A DNA stretch of 64,000 bases from Bacteroidota bacterium (GCA_029564465.1 JAKQPY010000075.1:5814-69813), one strand, 5' to 3'; shown: positions 6,998 to 60,856, counted from the stretch's first letter. Made by a program: numbers and translations. The notes: generated by a model not told the origin, from the letters alone.

Positions 6998-9604
6998 ATG
7001 GCGCAAACCGACGAAACCCCGTTGATGAAGCAGTACTACAGCATCAAGGCCAAACACCCCGATGCCATTCTGCTCTTTAGAGTCGGCGATTTCTACGAAA
7101 CTTTCGAAGAAGATGCCCGGCGCGCTTCGTCAATCCTTGGGATCACACTCACCAAACGAGCCAATGGGGCCGCTTCTTATGTCGATTTGGCAGGCTTTCC
7201 CTACCACGCCCTCGACACCTACCTGCCCAAACTCGTAAGAGCCGGCATGCGTGTGGCCATCTGCGAGCAACTCGAAGACCCCAAACAGACAAAAACCATT
7301 GTCCGTCGTGGTATCACCGAACTCGTTACACCCGGTGTGGCCCTCAACGATCAGATACTCGAAAACAAGGAAAATAACTTCCTTGCCAGCGTCTATATCG
7401 ATAAAAAGAATATCGGTGTCGCTTTTCTCGACATATCAACCGGCGAATTCCTTCTATCGCAGGGCGAACCCGAATATATTGACAAGCTGCTTCAAAGTTT
7501 CCGACCCAAGGAAGTCCTTTACGAAAGGCAATACAAAGAACAATTCCTTCAGCACTTCGGGACACGACACACCATTTTCCCCCTCGACGACTGGGTTTTC
7601 ACCGAGGAAAATGCCAACGAACGCCTGCTTAACCATTTCAGGGTAAAAAACCTGAAAGGCTTTGGCGTTCACGAAATGATCCACGGGGTAGTGGCTGCCG
7701 GAGCCATTCTCAACTATCTCCTTATCACCGAGCACCGTAATATTGGCCACATTAATGGCTTGTCGCGCATCGACCGTGACCAGTACGTATGGCTCGATAA
7801 GTTCACCGTTCGCAATCTCGAATTGCTGAATAGCATGAGCGAAGGCGGCAAGTCGCTCCTCGACATTCTCGATCGTACTACCAGTCCCATGGGAGGCCGT
7901 CTGCTGCGACGCTGGATAAGCCTTCCGCTGGTAAATCGCGCCAAAATCAACGACCGCCTCGATGTGGTGGAATTTCTGCTGCTCAACAAGCCGGTTGCCG
8001 AAGAGCTTAAAGCGGGCATTTCGAATGTGGGCGATCTCGAACGACTCATCTCCAAAGTGGCAGCCATACGGGTGAATCCCCGCGAGATGGTGCAGCTCAA
8101 GCACTCGCTTCATGCAGTAGCACGCGTAAAAGAAAGCGCTGCAATGGCCGGTAATGCCATTCTAACCCGGGTAGCCGACCAGTTAAACCCCTGTGCCGAT
8201 ATTTGCCGTCGCCTCGAAGCCGAACTCATCGAAGACGCTCCCAACCTTATAGCCAAAGGCAACGTTATTGCGCCCGGCGTTTCCGCTGAGCTCGACGAAC
8301 TTCGTCACATCACCGGTTCCGGAAAAGAATACCTCATCGAAATGCAACAGCGTGAAATCGAAAACACGGGTATCTCTTCGCTACGCATCGGTTTCAACAA
8401 TGTGTTCGGTTATTACTTCGAAGTGCGCAACACGCACAAAGACAAAGTTCCCGAAACATGGATCCGCAAGCAGACGCTCGTCAGTGCCGAACGATACATC
8501 ACCGAAGAACTTAAAGAATACGAAAGTAAAATTTTAGGTGCCGAAGAAAAAATTTCCGTAATCGAGCAACGCCTTTTCAACGACCTTGTACTGAGCATGG
8601 GCGATTATATCAGCACCATTCAGCTCAATGCCAATCATATAGCGTTAATCGACTGTCTGTTGTCGTTTGCTCAGGTTGCCGGACAAAACAACTACATCAA
8701 ACCCGGAATCGACGAATCTCGCATCATCGACATTCGTGATGGCCGCCATCCCGTCATCGAAAAACAACTTGCTCCGGGGGATGCCTACATCACCAACGAT
8801 GTCTATCTCGACCCCGATGAGCAGCAAATTATGATGATTACCGGCCCCAACATGTCGGGAAAATCTGCATTACTCAGGCAATCGGCTCTGATTTGCCTTA
8901 TGGCACAAATGGGCAGCTTCGTGCCCGCAGCTTCGGCTAATCTAGGCATTGTCGATAAAATATTTACACGCGTAGGTGCATCCGACAATATTTCGATGGG
9001 AGAATCAACCTTTATGGTCGAAATGAACGAAGCAGCAAGCATCCTCAACAACCTGTCGGACCGCAGTCTCGTACTCCTCGACGAAATAGGGCGCGGCACC
9101 AGCACTTACGATGGGGTGAGCATTGCCTGGGCTATTGCCGAATACCTGCACGAAAACCCTAAAGCCCGCGCCAAAACACTGTTTGCTACCCACTACCATG
9201 AGCTCAATGAGATGGAAAAAACCTTTCGTCGCATCAAAAACTTTAACGTTTCGGTAAAAGAAACCGGCGACAAGGTAATCTTTATGCGTAAACTAAAACC
9301 CGGGGGCAGCAACCACAGCTTTGGTATTCATGTGGCTGAAATGGCGGGAATGCCACCATCGGTTATCGACAGGGCAAGGCAGATATTATCGCAACTCGAA
9401 GGCAGCCGCGATCAAAGCCAGTTGAGCAAACCCACCGAAAAAATCGCAAAAACACGCGAAGGCTATCAGCTTAGCTTCTTCCAACTCGAAGACCCAGTGC
9501 TCAAACAAATCCGCGACGAAATTAAAAATCTCGACATCAACGCCCTCACACCCCTCGAAGCCCTCAACAAACTCAACGAGATTAAAAAACTGAGTGGGTT
9601 ATAG
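6998..9604 (+). CDS. mutS: DNA mismatch repair protein MutS
   Basis: '[30 protein letters not shown]', Walker A '[15 protein letters not shown]', and 'STFMVEMNE...[14 protein letters not shown]'. Confidence 0.97.
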
Positions 9605-14884: not shown

Positions 14885-15475
14885 ATGAAAACAACTACAA
14901 TGATTAAAACTTTTGCTGTGATAGCTTTCGTTGGAACAGCATTGGTATTCTCGGGCTGCAAAGGCAAAGAAAAAGCCGAAAACCCCGGTAAAGGCGCAAA
15001 AGAAGTAGTAATTCCCTGCAAAAACGAAGGCCGTTCCGATAAAGAATTCTTCCGTGCCGACAATTCATCGACCTCGCAGGACATGAGCCTTTCGCGCGAA
15101 AAAGCCCTCACCCTGGCAAAACAACGTCTCGCCAGCCTGATCAACACCAAAATCAAATCGGTTACCGATCGTTATGTTAACGAAACCGAAGTTGGCAAAA
15201 ATTCAGATTTTGAACAGAAATTCGAAAACCTGACCCGTGAAGTGGTGAATCAGACCCTTACCGATGTTGCTATTATCTGCGAAAAAACTTTCCAGGAAGC
15301 CGACGGTAAATACACCACCTACATTGCTATCGAAGTAAATAAAGACGCTTTGTTGAACGGAGTAAACAATAAACTTTCGAAAGATGACAAACTCCGCGTT
15401 GATTACGACAAGATGAAGTACGAAAAAATCTTCAACGAAGAAATGGAAAAACTCGAAAAAGAAGGTGGATATTAA
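14885..15475 (+). CDS. Hypothetical lipoprotein (possibly LPP20-like)
   Basis: Signal peptide plus lipobox 'ALVFSGC', and a charged helical C-terminus. The family assignment is tentative. Confidence 0.55.
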   Translation: MKTTTMIKTFAVIAFVGTALVFSGCKGKEKAENPGKGAKEVVIPCKNEGRSDKEFFRADNSSTSQDMSLSREKALTLAKQRLASLINTKIKSVTDRYVNETEVGKNSDFEQKFENLTREVVNQTLTDVAIICEKTFQEADGKYTTYIAIEVNKDALLNGVNNKLSKDDKLRVDYDKMKYEKIFNEEMEKLEKEGGY

Positions 15476-15498
15476 TAGCTGTCTTTCTCTAAAACAAA

Positions 15499-15527
15499 AA
15501 GCCATCGGATAACCGGTGGCTTTTTTT
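15499..15527 (+). terminator. Rho-independent terminator
   Basis: gccatcgg (15501-08) pairs with ccggtggc (15513-20) including one G:U pair, with a 4-nt loop and a T7 run. Confidence 0.6.
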
Positions 15528-15672
15528 GTTTTAGCTTTTTTGGAATAATCCCTCAGTTTTCAGTCCTTAAAGGCGAAAGAATAAAATATGGTTTAATGAT
15601 GCTTTTCGAATACTGCCGTGCAAACTTGCTTTCGGGCAGACACCAAGCTATCTATAGCTAATTTATTGCCTC

Positions 15673-16896
15673 TTAACGATGAATAAAAATAAACTCGCCA
15701 CCCTCGTCTCCGGTGTTTTGAATAATTCCATATTGAGGCTCGGTTTGAGAGTTATTCAGAACTGCCTGACGAAAACTGGAAAACAACATATCGGATGAAA
15801 TATATTTTTCGGTATTCTCAACAAGTCTTTTTATTAGGAATGTTACAAAAACGCTTTCGTCGGGAACGGTTTTCATATTACCACTTGTCATCGCTTTTCG
15901 ACTAGGCAGTTCATATAGCCTGTTTATTGCCGGTTGAGCGTCGTTAAATGCTACTCTTGTTTTAAAGATACTACCGCTAAAACAGGCGTCAGCAATAAGC
16001 AAGGTATGTTGAGAATTTGTAGCCTTCAAATAATCGCTGATGCGGCTGTTTGGAATCCAAAAAGCCGTGCTGTTGTTCTGAGCATCAACAGGCAACCAAT
16101 AACCCAGTTTCTTTGCTTCGTCCCAATGCCCATGACCCGCGTAAAAAATTAACAGATTATCGTTGGGTGTAATTTTATTACTTAGTTCGTCAAAAGCATT
16201 TATCATTTGAACATAGGTTGCATTTTTGAGGAAAGTGATGTTTTCGGGTTTAAAAACATAGCTGTCGGTAAGCACTTCATACAGTTTGGTTGCATCTTTA
16301 ATCGGGTTACTCAAGGTTGGAACTTCAGGGTCCAGATACACTTCGTTACCGATAATTAAAGCATAATAATTTGATTCAGGAATCAGTGTTGCTTTTTCGG
16401 TAACAACGGGTTCTTTCTTCTCGGTGATTTGCTGGTCAGAAACCCGCTCAATTGTAAACTCCTTTACAGCAGTATTTCTCTTAATATCGGTTGCTTCAAC
16501 GGTAATTGTGTTTAGCCCGATTGCTAACAAAATATTTATTGAAAAATTACCATCGGCATTCAAGTAAGCATCCTGTCCATTAACCAATACTTCGAGAATA
16601 CCGCCTGCATCAGTAACTTTACCTTCGATAAAAAACTCTTTTTCTTTAACAACGGGTTTGAAACCACGGGCAGGATCGATTGAGGTAATTACTATTTCAG
16701 GCGGTGTTTTGTCTTCGGGAGGTAAGCCGATTTTAAAATTTAACATTCCCGATCTGGCTGTGTCAGTAGCAGGTTGTGTGCCAATTGAAAATTCGAAGGT
16801 ACCACTGCTACTCTTTGAGGTTGGGGTCTTGTTGTTTTGTGCAAACAACACCCCGGTTACCAAAACTAGAAAAAAAATGAGTATTGTTTTTTTCAT
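15673..16896 (-). CDS. Exported caspase-family (peptidase C14, orthocaspase-like) protease with an N-terminal Ig-like domain
   Basis: Signal peptide 'MKKTILIFFLVLVTGVLFAQ'. The caspase core is 'YALIIGNEVY', with His-Gly in 'LLIFYAGHGHW' and Cys in 'LLIADACFSGSIF', so the dyad is intact. The ATG at 16896 was chosen because the signal peptide starts there. Confidence 0.85.
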   Translation of the reverse strand: MKKTILIFFLVLVTGVLFAQNNKTPTSKSSSGTFEFSIGTQPATDTARSGMLNFKIGLPPEDKTPPEIVITSIDPARGFKPVVKEKEFFIEGKVTDAGGILEVLVNGQDAYLNADGNFSINILLAIGLNTITVEATDIKRNTAVKEFTIERVSDQQITEKKEPVVTEKATLIPESNYYALIIGNEVYLDPEVPTLSNPIKDATKLYEVLTDSYVFKPENITFLKNATYVQMINAFDELSNKITPNDNLLIFYAGHGHWDEAKKLGYWLPVDAQNNSTAFWIPNSRISDYLKATNSQHTLLIADACFSGSIFKTRVAFNDAQPAINRLYELPSRKAMTSGNMKTVPDESVFVTFLIKRLVENTEKYISSDMLFSSFRQAVLNNSQTEPQYGIIQNTGDEGGEFIFIHR

Positions 16897-16912
16897 GATT
16901 GTGAGTGTTATG

Positions 16913-17803
16913 TTAGAAACGCCAGCCGATTCCGGCAAAAGGTCTCAACTCAGAAAATTTATCAATAAAGAAGTCAAAATTCAAATATAAATGTCCCACG
17001 CTTGCATCGGTACCTATCCCAATGGCGTAAGACGGCTGCTTCTCTTCCCAATACTCATCAACCCACATGTCGTAAAAATAACCCGAGTTGTAATCGTAAT
17101 ATGTTACATAATGCCCATAACCGGACCTGGTAGCGGTCGTATATCCAAAAACCGGATATATACTCCACTGGAAATTGCGTTTTCTTATCAGACTTTTCGA
17201 CACATCAGCCAAAAGTGTAAATTCGCCCCACCAACTTAAATCCTGTCCTGCAAGTAAACCAAAGCCCCACTTCCCACGATATCCGCCTTTTAATCCCCAG
17301 GTTTCGACTGCAGCAAACCATTGTCCCTTGTTCTCTTTATCGTATCTGAAAATGCTGAACTTCTGATCGGATACGGTTTTGCTTTCTTTAACAACAACCG
17401 GTTTTTCTTCTTTTACCTTTTCGGGTTTTTCTTCTTTTTTAGGCTTTTCGACCACGCTGTTGTCTTTAGTAAGGCTGGCCACCACAGCGAACTCGGCATT
17501 GACAAGCCAGTCAACATCTTTTTTGACATCCCACACGGCCTGATAGGTGCTTTTGCCGCCTATAACACCTTCACCCACATCGCCGGTTACGCTTTTTAGA
17601 ACAAAATTACTGCCAGAGCCTGTATTTACCAATATTTTAACATAGTACAGCTGATTTACATTCGAGTTTAAGATTTCGTAATTGATGTAAATTTTATCGG
17701 CTTTTTGCTCCGCTGATATAAGATTGACATCATATTCAATTTGTGAATAAGCTATTGTATTTGTAAGAGCAAAAAAAATCAAGAATACTAGAAAATTTTT
17801 CAT
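16913..17803 (-). CDS. Hypothetical exported protein: N-terminal beta-sandwich, Lys/Glu-rich linker, C-terminal putative small outer-membrane beta-barrel
   Basis: Signal peptide 'MKNFLVFLIFFALTNTIAYSQ' and linker 'KPKKEEKPEKVKEEKPVVVKE'. The C-terminal 150 aa are aromatic/Gly-rich with an alternating pattern and end in 'FAGIGWRF', an OMP-like terminal Phe. Confidence 0.5.
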   Translation of the reverse strand: MKNFLVFLIFFALTNTIAYSQIEYDVNLISAEQKADKIYINYEILNSNVNQLYYVKILVNTGSGSNFVLKSVTGDVGEGVIGGKSTYQAVWDVKKDVDWLVNAEFAVVASLTKDNSVVEKPKKEEKPEKVKEEKPVVVKESKTVSDQKFSIFRYDKENKGQWFAAVETWGLKGGYRGKWGFGLLAGQDLSWWGEFTLLADVSKSLIRKRNFQWSIYPVFGYTTATRSGYGHYVTYYDYNSGYFYDMWVDEYWEEKQPSYAIGIGTDASVGHLYLNFDFFIDKFSELRPFAGIGWRF

Positions 17804-17899
17804 TCTATGGTGATTTATATTATGGTTAGATGTTCTCAATTATTTGATACAAAAATATTAAATGAAAGTAAAAAAACAAATATTAATATTTAAAAAGCA

Positions 17900-19423
17900 T
17901 CAGGGCATTGTAGTGATAATCAAGCGTTGTTCGGCCTGCATCAGGCCTGCATCAGCGCGTTTGATTCCCCTTGTTTTGTGTATTACCTCGCCCAAGGGTT
18001 CAGTAATAAACTGATACCCATCAACTTTTTCGATGGCCAGCGGGGCAAACTTCTCGGTGCTGGCATTCAGTTGTAACACCTCTACTCCAAATGGTTCAGC
18101 GCAAACAAAATCATGGGGTAGTTCATAAACCATATTTACCTTGTCGGAGTTTACAAAGTAATTGTCGAGAAGCATCACAATATTACCATCGGCAAGGTGG
18201 TAAATAAAGCGCAGGTAACATTCCTTATTCACCCTTACATACAAACGAAGACTATCGCCTTCCGAAAAAATCAGATTTTCGTCGCCTTGGTTGGTCCATA
18301 CCTCAACAAGAAGGTCGCCATGTATCACTTCATCCTGCTTGAACACTTTCATTCTCGAATAGGCTTCCTCGAAGTTTTCGGGTTTCACCTGAATATTCAG
18401 CGAATCGAGTAGTTGCTTTGCAATTTTGCTTTCCGAAGAGGCCAGGGCTTTGCCATTCATGTCGCGCATTACCGACAATATTTTAATAAAATCGCCCTCT
18501 TCCCAGTAGGTACCACTAATATTGTAATCGACCCTTTGATTCATTCCCTGCTCATTCTTTCCGTATCTGACAATACCATAATTTGCTTCCGAGATCAAGG
18601 TCTGTTCGAATTTGCGTAGAAATACTTGCGAAAATGGACTGCTCATTTTGGTCTCCTGATAAGTAAAGGCAGTAAGACTTACACTGCCATCAATGATCCC
18701 AGTTTGTAACTGATAGGCCTGAGCCATTAAGTAGCAGGCATCTTCGATGTTCAGTTTTTTTGAGTTATTGATGCCGAATATTCCATTTTCTACAATGCTC
18801 TTTAAATCAGAAAGTTTGTTGATTTCAGCGGCATCGTCGTTTAGGTTTTGCTTCAAAGCAAGAAAAACAGTCTGTGCTTCTTCGGCCTCACGAAACATAC
18901 TTTGGGTCTGATAATAGATTTTTAGCGCGCCGGCTTTGTCGCCATTGCTTTCAAGTTGTTTTGCCATTTCGATTTTTTGCGCAATGGCAATTGCTTTGTC
19001 ATCTATGGTCTTTTTATAAAGTGCCGATACTTCCTCTTTTTTTGCATAAACCAACACATAGGCTGTTTTGGTCTTTTTATCGTAATACTGCTCGGTTTTC
19101 GAACCAGAAAGGACAATATTACTATTCGAAACACAATTTTTTCGCACGTATTCTTCTACTTCTTTATTGGTCTCAGTCATATTTATATCAACCAAACTAC
19201 TGATAATCACCAAAATAGATTCGCTTAAGCGTGATTTGGCAAAACCTTCTAATTTTGTAAGCAATTCGGTCTCGCCTACCAATTTGTTTTGTTCCGATGC
19301 ATAACCTGTCAGATAAAGGGCATCGGGATATTGGGCTTTTCGCCATTGGGCATCAATCCATTTGGGTTGCGACATCAACTGAAGGCTGAGTAATATCAAC
19401 AGACTTGATAGAAGTAATTTCAT
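17900..19423 (-). CDS. Hypothetical exported multidomain protein (LPP20-like N-terminus, FlgO/LpoB-like middle, DUF4384-like C-terminus)
   Basis: Signal peptide 'MKLLLSSLLILLSLQLMSQ'. The C-terminal 'LLVEVWTNQGDENLIFSEGDSLRLYVRVNKECYLRFIYHLADGNIVMLL' resembles DUF4384, a domain often fused to caspases. Domain calls were made by eye only. Confidence 0.5.
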   Translation of the reverse strand: MKLLLSSLLILLSLQLMSQPKWIDAQWRKAQYPDALYLTGYASEQNKLVGETELLTKLEGFAKSRLSESILVIISSLVDINMTETNKEVEEYVRKNCVSNSNIVLSGSKTEQYYDKKTKTAYVLVYAKKEEVSALYKKTIDDKAIAIAQKIEMAKQLESNGDKAGALKIYYQTQSMFREAEEAQTVFLALKQNLNDDAAEINKLSDLKSIVENGIFGINNSKKLNIEDACYLMAQAYQLQTGIIDGSVSLTAFTYQETKMSSPFSQVFLRKFEQTLISEANYGIVRYGKNEQGMNQRVDYNISGTYWEEGDFIKILSVMRDMNGKALASSESKIAKQLLDSLNIQVKPENFEEAYSRMKVFKQDEVIHGDLLVEVWTNQGDENLIFSEGDSLRLYVRVNKECYLRFIYHLADGNIVMLLDNYFVNSDKVNMVYELPHDFVCAEPFGVEVLQLNASTEKFAPLAIEKVDGYQFITEPLGEVIHKTRGIKRADAGLMQAEQRLIITTMP

Positions 19424-19566
19424 AGTTTCGACGAATTTGTTTTCATTATATGAAAGTCTAAAAATACACAATCTTTGCCAAATTGTAAAATCATAAAAAA
19501 AAGAATTATTATTTTGGACTGTTGCAGAATAGCAATGCAATATTCTATTATTACTACTTTTGCCTC

Positions 19567-60769: not shown

Positions 60770-60843
60770 GGGGCATTAGCTCAGTTGGCTAGAGCGCGTG
60801 ACTGGCAGTCACGAGGTCAGCGGTTCGACCCCGCTATGCTCCA
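60770..60843 (+). tRNA. tRNA-Ala (anticodon GGC)
   Basis: Hand-folded cloverleaf: acceptor ggggcat/atgctcc with G3:U70, D-arm gctc/gagc, anticodon stem cgtga/tcacg with loop ctGGCag, T-arm agcgg/ccgct with loop ttcgacc, and discriminator A. CCA is not encoded. Confidence 0.93.
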
Positions 60844-60856
60844 CAGTATAAATCGA

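Follow-up and report, generated by a model that had tools for sequence, protein, structure and literature searches.

We analyzed a 64,000-nucleotide stretch of DNA from a Bacteroidota bacterium (GCA_029564465.1, JAKQPY010000075.1:5814-69813; hereafter the window) and found in it a minus-strand locus of three genes, designated A, B, and C, together with a convergent lipoprotein gene, designated D. Comparison with related loci indicated that the B-C pair, and not the A-B-C triad, is the tightly conserved unit, in which B, a predicted outer membrane (OM) barrel protein, is the conserved genetic partner of C, a predicted exported caspase. A and D appear to be LPP20/LpoB-type envelope proteins that are recurrent, non-obligate companions of exported caspases. 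Taken as a whole, the locus may be an extracytoplasmic caspase module, that is, an OM-tethered periplasmic protease of the Arg/Lys type with strain-variable partners for targeting or regulation, a proposal that we regard as evenly poised. The four genes are as follows, with the N-terminal beta-sandwich of B referred to as BN.

Gene A, 17900..19423, minus strand: open reading frame (ORF) of 507 amino acids (aa) from ATG; predicted exported protein with LPP20-like, LpoB-like, and DUF4384 domains
Gene B, 16913..17803, minus strand: ORF of 296 aa; predicted exported protein with the BN sandwich, a linker, and a small OM-barrel-like domain
Gene C, 15673..16896, minus strand: ORF of 407 aa; predicted exported orthocaspase-type protease with an immunoglobulin (Ig)-like and a C14 domain
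Gene D, 14885..15475, plus strand: ORF for a 196-aa lipoprotein, convergent to C; LPP20-like

The association of B with C was examined by a genome scan for B loci. The first, broad alignment of B had no conserved stretch; a narrower alignment gave 24 loci, which were searched with purpose-built hidden Markov models, and 17 of these contain a full-length B homologue and enough sequence beyond it for a following gene. In all 17 of them, the next same-strand gene after B encoded an Ig-C14 caspase, mostly at a gap of 2–90 nucleotides (nt), and the loci came from Bacteroidales, Rikenellaceae, Bacteroidaceae, and other Bacteroidota metagenome-assembled genomes (MAGs). All-against-all clustering of the neighboring genes revealed B and C as the only families common to the locus flanks. 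B was doubled in some loci (B-B-C), and in locus L008 the B-C pair was tandemly duplicated as a unit. The partner caspases (n = 21) shared a conserved N-terminal mature segment, SG...F.IS.KK. Median pairwise identity was 49% for C and 31% for B, and the distance matrices of the two families were correlated (r = 0.74, a value reached in none of 2000 permutations). Two relatives, P0367 and P0368, carried BN, Ig, and C14 in one polypeptide, and in locus L116 a gene for a BN-Fib_succ_major protein was followed by a caspase gene and then by a gene for a protein matching the barrel half of B only. A lipoprotein-PEGA caspase with an anchor of its own had no B-like neighbor. We take B-C rather than the triad as the core because the 17 loci lacked an A-family gene within 8 kb. 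An earlier note on this DNA had proposed a Rosetta-stone link between DUF4384 and C14; the enrichment of C14 genes around A genes, given below, speaks for that link, but the strongest evidence of this kind connects BN with the caspase through the P0367 and P0368 fusions.

Two further observations concern this family. Locus L021 (JBLNAO010000002.1, labelled as a Chloroflexota MAG) carried B-C and flanks that were 75–98% protein-identical to those of the Bacteroidales loci L016 and L020, and is probably mis-binned. The Ig-C14 unit (50–66% identical) was also present behind varied exported N-terminal modules in P0006-P0120, including lipoprotein-PEGA, Laminin_G_3, CarboxypepD_reg, cadherin-like, TPR, and several unnamed domains, which points to the Ig-C14 proteins as a large combinatorial family in Bacteroidota.

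The product of gene C has an intact His/Cys dyad and is predicted to be an exported, active orthocaspase. Its parts are as follows.

C signal peptide: aa 1-20
C conserved N-terminal mature segment (SSGxFxFSI): aa 21-65
C Ig-like domain: aa 66-150
C C14 domain: aa 178-407, with His255 (FYAGHGHW), Cys305 (IADACFSG), and Asp303

The earlier description of an Ig-like domain followed by a caspase fold with an intact His/Cys dyad was borne out by Pfam matches to Glucodextran_B (Ig-like; E 2e-11) and to Peptidase_C14 (PF00656; E 1e-14, 55.2 bits, cutoff 21.4), and His255 and Cys305 aligned with the catalytic dyad of MALT1. Metacaspases and MALT1 were the nearest solved structures to the C family, whose profile matched the metacaspase structures Yca1 (1.6e-10) and AtMC4. 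The dyad motifs FYAGHG.W and (I/V)ADACFSG were invariant in the 21 B-adjacent caspases, all of which carried a signal peptide. Asp303, located two residues before Cys305, was invariant in the C-family alignment, as was Asp201 (PIKDA), a candidate equivalent of Asp95 in the acidic S1 pocket of TbMC2. In TbMC2, Asp211 is the S1-pocket residue that accommodates basic residues (PMC6426788); because the invariant Asp303 of C occupies the matching position, C likely cleaves after Arg or Lys. The best NCBIfam match of C was the EACC1-associated caspase model NF047832, with 78.5 bits, far under the cutoff of 140, and neither an EACC1 domain nor an NTPase is encoded in the operon. Since the NF047832 score is below the model cutoff, C is assigned by profile to the C14 family and not to the EACC1-associated subfamily. 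No Por_Secre_tail match was obtained in C even at E<=1, and its C-terminus is part of the caspase domain. Secretion of C by the type IX secretion system (T9SS) was rejected, as C has no C-terminal sorting domain; its absence also makes surface display of the protease improbable.

The product of gene B is predicted to be an OM-barrel protein of a family that has no name, and is divided as follows.

B signal peptide: aa 1-20
B conserved beta-sandwich BN: about aa 21-115, motif GDVG..V.GGK..Y...WDV.KD
B Lys/Glu/Pro-rich disordered linker: aa 116-155
B Gly/aromatic-rich small OM-barrel-like domain: aa 156-296, C-terminal end GIGWRF

Neither Pfam nor NCBIfam gave a match for B, 30 relatives of B had no Pfam match either, and no significant PDB sequence-profile match was found for the B family or the A family. 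According to a profile search, the B family comprises 1233 clusters at 50% identity, which are unannotated. The AlphaFold2 model of B (predicted local distance difference test score, pLDDT, 69) placed the beta-sandwich at aa 26-114 and ten strands at aa 161-295, with the linker between them disordered, and the top 14 Foldseek matches of B in the PDB were small OM barrels (OmpA-TM, OprF, OmpX, Ail, NspA, and PagP) with TM-scores (TMt) of 0.61 or less. The barrel region contained 13% Gly and 24% Phe, Trp, and Tyr, and a Tyr/Asp-rich hairpin at aa 225-254 looks like a surface loop. The C-terminal G.G.RF was present in 19 of 21 B homologues, and one relative, P0228, joins BN to an OM barrel recognized by Pfam (OMP_b-brl_2; PF13568/PF13505). 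These data agree with the earlier view of B as a beta-sandwich and a linker with a C-terminal 'GWRF' as the beta-signal of an outer membrane protein; by the AlphaFold2 model, the Foldseek matches, and P0228, B is predicted to be an OM-barrel protein rather than a soluble one.

The BN sandwich occurred in other settings as well. In P0347 and P0359, BN was joined to lectin-like FGE-sulfatase or Fib_succ_major domains, and it was found as 7–13 tandem repeats in giant, almost unannotated proteins (P0348, of 3982 aa, P0351, and P0364), which appear to represent an unnamed Ig-like repeat family. Judged by this distribution, BN is a sandwich module of general use and not one confined to caspases. A relationship of BN to DUF4384 was rejected, as profile-profile comparison of the B and A families gave no relation, and B as a translocator of the two-partner or autotransporter type was likewise rejected, the barrel being too small.

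The variation of the module between strains was compared with locus L008, which is from the same species. A blastn alignment gave 98.7% nucleotide identity over 6.3 kb (window 25856-19519), and the flanking proteins were 98.8–100% identical. This near-identity stopped exactly in the intergenic region 5' of A, at about 19519, and no blastn alignment extended through A. Across the compared regions (window 15424-19519 and L008 6338-12721), L008 carries an extra B'-C' pair. The A alleles were 48% identical, with each domain at 40–58%; B was 82% identical (BN 77%, barrel 92%), and C was 96% identical, with Ig and C14 at 100% and the N-terminal segment at 84%. The module is thus a replacement hotspot within one species. 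BN and the N-terminal segment of the caspase were both more divergent than the barrel that lies between them, which would fit a co-varying interface, although the numbers are small. In a second syntenic set, the flanking proteins were 72–87%, C 50–70%, and B 37–44% identical. The sharp allelic turnover between strains of one species suggests selection on recognition.

A related arrangement was seen in L001 (9372-17221; also L002, L003, L012, and L036), where A-B-C is followed by a second caspase of 486 aa with PEGA, Ig, and C14 domains; the L001 caspase was 75% identical to C of the window. What appears to be an inserted island, of a mobile or defense type, lies 3' of the second caspase; it encodes a tyrosine integrase, an M23 peptidase, AAA/LPD1 proteins, and a helicase. 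The counterpart of this position in the window holds lipoprotein gene D and RNase R.

The product of gene A is composed of the following parts.

A signal peptide: aa 1-19
A LPP20-like alpha/beta domain: about aa 20-128
A helical hairpins: aa 129-241
A LpoB-C/TolB-N-like alpha/beta domain: about aa 242-345
A DUF4384 beta-sandwich: aa 373-507

The C-terminus of A, which had been thought to look like DUF4384, gave a match to this family (PF14326) at aa 386-457 with 31.4 bits against a cutoff of 27 (E 2e-7), the sole Pfam match of A; both C14 and DUF4384 were detected in this way by profile search. The A family included 94 full-length homologues in Bacteroidota, most of them likewise annotated as DUF4384. 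The AlphaFold2 model of A (pLDDT 83.5; predicted TM-score, pTM, 0.77) contained alpha/beta domains at aa 25-128 and 247-341, together with the helical hairpins and the DUF4384 beta-sandwich, and the alpha/beta domains had Foldseek matches to HP1454, Lpp20, Tip-alpha, GNA1162, and the C-domain of LpoB; Lpp20 (5ok8) matched the N-domain (TMt 0.61, E 0.04), and LpoB (4q6l/4q6z) matched aa ~242-345 (TMt 0.61–0.63). The Pfam LPP20 model (PF02169) matched neither A nor D, and A lacked both a lipobox and any similarity in sequence to LpoB. The suggestion of LPP20 and FlgO/LpoB-type modules in the N-terminal and middle parts of A was thus retained for the fold (TMt 0.61–0.63) but not for a Pfam sequence match, and the likeness is best described as one of modeled fold, not of sequence.

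Lipoprotein D carries the lipobox VFSG|C. The suspicion that this convergent gene (14885-15475) belongs to the locus was strengthened by a phmmer search, in which homologues of D, lipoproteins of ~195 aa, were found beside A homologues in 10 distant loci (L063 at 3e-37). One of these homologues, in L073, scored 24.7 bits against Pfam LPP20, just under the cutoff of 25.9. A match of D to NCBIfam BamJ, a beta-barrel-assembly accessory protein, had an E of 0.21, far below the cutoff, and is probably not meaningful.

To define the company of A, a metagenome scan yielded 80 A loci, of which 42 were non-redundant and 10 kb or longer; the counts given here refer to these. A C14 gene was located within 8 kb of A in 22 of the 42 loci and within 500 nt in 7, a BN protein was near A in 5, and a D homologue in 6 (10 loci overall). 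In 339 kb of control sequence, only 1 of 21 C14 ORFs was not B-linked; against this background of at most one C14 gene per ~300 kb, the enrichment of C14 around A was at least tenfold. The caspases adjacent to A were often of 1000–1160 aa, with a signal peptide, WD40 repeats, and C14. The exact A-B-C triad was syntenic in related genomes, and it was confined to close relatives (L001-3, L008/9, L012, and L036). At the level of families, A, a BN protein, C, and D-like proteins co-clustered in three deeply divergent lineages, namely the window group, L073/L078, and L077/L087.

The A family was also met in other contexts. In L111 (2-4121) and L112 (P0220, P0221), a Hanks-type Ser/Thr kinase was fused to the C-terminal half of A (LpoB-like and DUF4384), and an exported C14 protein of 679 aa was encoded 8 nt downstream. 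From this kinase fusion beside a caspase, DUF4384 would seem to act as a sensor module outside the cytoplasm. In L005 (7001-13911), L045, and L046, from Flexithrix and related contigs, an A homologue was followed by four genes, for a CsgG-family protein, a 599-aa A-like paralogue lacking DUF4384, a lipoprotein weakly similar to D, and a protein that matched DUF4384 weakly; no caspase lay within 8 kb, and these loci appear to be a separate, caspase-free context of the A family.

On the basis of these observations, we propose the following scheme for the module. The C-terminal 8–10-stranded barrel of B would be inserted in the outer membrane, with BN hanging into the periplasm on the flexible linker. 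BN would dock the caspase, probably via the conserved N-terminal segment or the Ig domain of C, and the docked C would act as an OM-tethered periplasmic endopeptidase cutting after basic residues. Published fusions join DUF4384 to proteases and kinases (PMC6426788; bioRxiv 10.1101/2022.08.17.504292), and in Ser/Thr kinases the domain is at the sensor end. Through DUF4384, A, aided by the OM lipoprotein D, might scaffold or gate the protease or adapt it to its substrates. A constant protease would in this way be combined with fast-evolving, strain-variable partners that set what the protease recognizes or when it fires, and the candidate targets would be the cell's own envelope proteins or incoming foreign proteins. 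Several findings weigh against this scheme. The B model is of moderate quality (pLDDT 69) with weak Foldseek E-values (1e-3 to 1e-2), and aa 225-254 of B are polar, so that the strand count and topology are uncertain. The BN repeats occur in giant adhesin-like proteins, and BN is not specific to caspases. A is missing from most B-C pairs (none of the 17 genome-scan loci had an A-family gene within 8 kb), and about half of the A genes have no caspase nearby; A is therefore not an obligate subunit. Furthermore, the genetic linkage would be compatible with BN as an inhibitor or zymogen-keeper as well as with BN as an anchor.

The last of these points leads to an alternative in which BN is a trans-acting prodomain or inhibitor that keeps the exported caspase latent, as in the staphostatin-staphopain pair or an N-terminal propeptide, with the barrel only localizing the inhibitor. 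Like propeptides, BN is N-terminal to the protease in the fusions, B is strictly adjacent to C and precedes it in every case, and a protease with Arg/Lys specificity could plausibly cut B within its Lys-rich linker. However, the linker is not conserved, and BN is joined to Fib_succ_major and FGE-sulfatase domains and repeated in giant proteins, more in the manner of a binding or adaptor module, and we consider an inhibitory role quite unlikely. The caspases could alternatively form a digestive or nutritional set, in which Ig-C14 enzymes degrade imported or surface-bound proteins and B, A, and D are merely co-expressed envelope proteins. Bacteroidota possess a great number of exported Ig-C14 paralogues whose N-terminal modules bind carbohydrate or protein, and the gingipains, Arg/Lys-specific enzymes of clan CD, are a precedent. 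Against this, the missing T9SS C-terminal domain makes a location of C at the cell surface unlikely, no SusC/SusD-type or peptide-transport genes are linked, and a strict pairing with one small partner would not be expected for bulk digestion; such a function is in our judgment very unlikely. That the genes are neighbors by chance and share no function would agree with the frequent occurrence of A-family genes without B or C, but for B-C this is contradicted by the 17/17 adjacency with unrelated flanks, the duplication of the pair as a unit, and the BN-caspase fusions, and for A the enrichment of C14 genes around it (tenfold or more) speaks against it; we hold chance adjacency to be exceedingly improbable.

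Extracytoplasmic conflict or surveillance would assign another function to the same variable parts. The hypervariable A and B would recognize foreign proteins arriving at the envelope, for instance components of phages or toxins from other bacteria, and as receptors they would then release or activate the caspase, with destruction of the intruder or cleavage of the cell's own envelope proteins (abortive infection). The extreme variation between near-identical strains (A 48%, B 82%, C 96%, and an extra B-C pair, with flanks at 98.7% nucleotide identity) would be expected from such receptors, as would a B at 37–44% beside flanking proteins at 72–87% in the second syntenic set and a caspase domain that stays constant under many N-terminal or partner modules, lectin-like ones included. 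The best NCBIfam match is to a caspase type associated with EACC1 conflict systems, and the module abuts the integrase/helicase island in L001. On the other hand, PADLOC gave only the generic 'caspase' model for C and matched nothing in A, B, or D; the NCBIfam score was well under the cutoff, and there is no EACC1 or NTPase partner. Scans of viral contigs gave no relatives of A or B, the genes flanking the module in the window are housekeeping genes, and surface exposure alone can also lead to hypervariability. We therefore regard a conflict function as unlikely, if with an appreciable chance. Its narrower form, in which the strain alleles of A and B and the variable number of B-C cassettes constitute a receptor repertoire that triggers a constant Arg/Lys-specific caspase, is somewhat less probable still; if true, the module would do at the envelope what caspase-linked immune systems do in the cytoplasm. 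A phage-borne cassette is likewise unlikely, given the same scans of viral contigs.

The proposed OM-tethered protease module was also compared with known systems. C shares the fold and the His/Cys dyad with orthocaspases and metacaspases of family C14 (Microcystis MaOC1, Yca1 4f6o, AtMC4 6w8s, and TbMC2), has, like them, an Asp two residues before the catalytic Cys, which would imply Arg/Lys specificity, and differs from them in its Sec signal peptide, its preceding Ig-like domain, and its genetic lock to an OM-barrel partner. To our knowledge, no characterized orthocaspase has such a partner. Typical of the family, by contrast, are the modular accessory domains of C at the N- and C-terminal sides, and Bacteroidetes hold ~12% of the known true orthocaspases (PMC6426788). 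Surveys have noted possible extracellular metacaspases and OmpA-domain neighbors (PMC3501461). A literature search for a pairing of a caspase with an OM barrel, or for a C14 system in the periplasm, turned up surveys only and no description of the B family or of its pairing with a caspase. In Psychroflexus torquis, gene clusters of WD40-metacaspases with signal peptides have been reported (PMC3914696); there too, exported caspase homologues lie among sensory and unknown genes, and the same WD40-C14 architecture adjoins A homologues in the loci surveyed here, whereas that report contains no partner analysis, B family, or DUF4384, and the caspase of the window is of the short Ig-C14 type. The EACC1-associated caspases (NF047832) are alike in combining a constant effector with variable partners, but those systems are cytoplasmic, while the module of the window is predicted to be extracytoplasmic.

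In the gingipain and PorU-PorV systems, a barrel protein retains C25 enzymes of clan CD at the OM, and gingipains are Arg/Lys-specific. By analogy, the module of the window would likewise bring together a caspase-fold cysteine peptidase of Bacteroidota, Ig-like domains, and the OM with a beta-barrel protein. However, C belongs to C14 and not to C25, has no T9SS C-terminal domain, and is predicted to be periplasmic instead of surface-located; the barrel of B is small (~8–10 strands) and unrelated to the 14-stranded PorV, and the absence of any NCBIfam match for B includes the PorP/SprF and PorV families. The domains of A superposed on HP1454, Lpp20, Tip-alpha, and the LpoB C-domain, that is, on members of the Helicobacter pylori Lpp20 cluster (HP1454, Lpp20/HP1456, and HP1457), Tip-alpha, and Escherichia coli LpoB. 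All of these represent small envelope-associated scaffold or regulator folds, and D is an LPP20-like lipoprotein. In contrast to these proteins, A, which is no lipoprotein, joins the two folds to DUF4384 and has no significant sequence similarity to them. We know of no caspase association for Lpp20/LpoB-type proteins in Helicobacter and E. coli.

Bacterial caspase homologues are abundant, and almost none has an assigned substrate, partner, or role. The present locus offers a compact, genetically defined system with an exported, apparently active caspase, the B/BN family as its obligate partner, and two recurrent accessory proteins, in which natural fusions and domain rearrangements point to the parts that touch each other. 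If the selection is indeed on recognition, caspase-fold proteases would be linked to self/non-self or stress sensing at the level of the envelope, and the locus would give the first functional context for DUF4384 and LPP20/LpoB-like folds in Bacteroidota.

As for the layout of the locus, the ORF coordinates and the intergenic gaps (96 nt for A-B and 16 nt for B-C) matched the three co-directional minus-strand genes of the earlier note, and every peptide string quoted in it was present in the translations. The start codons of A, B, and C agreed with the gene calls of relatives (508, 299, and 406 aa). The Sec signal claimed for each product was recognizable: the signal peptides of A, B, and C, as read from the sequence, have a basic n-region and a hydrophobic core of 12–15 residues, and Ala or Ser precedes Gln at the predicted cleavage sites (LMS|Q, AYS|Q, and LFA|Q, respectively), which is the usual signal-peptidase-I pattern in Bacteroidota. 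An N-terminal helix was present in the AlphaFold2 models of A and B. Two further features border the genes.

Hairpin, 15496..15525, no strand: 13-bp, GC-rich, with an A-run and a T-run on either side, between the stop codons of the converging genes D and C
Divergent intergenic region 5' of A, 19424..19521, no strand: read from the sequence; place where the near-identity with L008 ends

The hairpin at 15496-15525, found by a terminator scan and inspection of the sequence, is a candidate bidirectional terminator that would close both transcription units. A scan for sigma-70 promoters gave fewer sites than in shuffled sequence and was not used, as Bacteroidota promoters are not modeled by it. The block had been described as markedly AT-rich, and the spot counts behind that claim (18/60 G+C at 17641-17700 and 29/60 at 7021-7080) were reproduced exactly; the block as a whole was only mildly AT-rich, with a GC content of 39.4% against a window mean of 43.3% (standard deviation 3.1%, same-size windows), at the 12th percentile. 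An argument from AT-richness for horizontal transfer was rejected as weak in view of this percentile. Rfam and tRNA scans of the window gave no RNA element in or near the block, and the sole RNA gene detected, a tRNA-Ala (GGC) gene at 60770-60844, is unrelated to the module.

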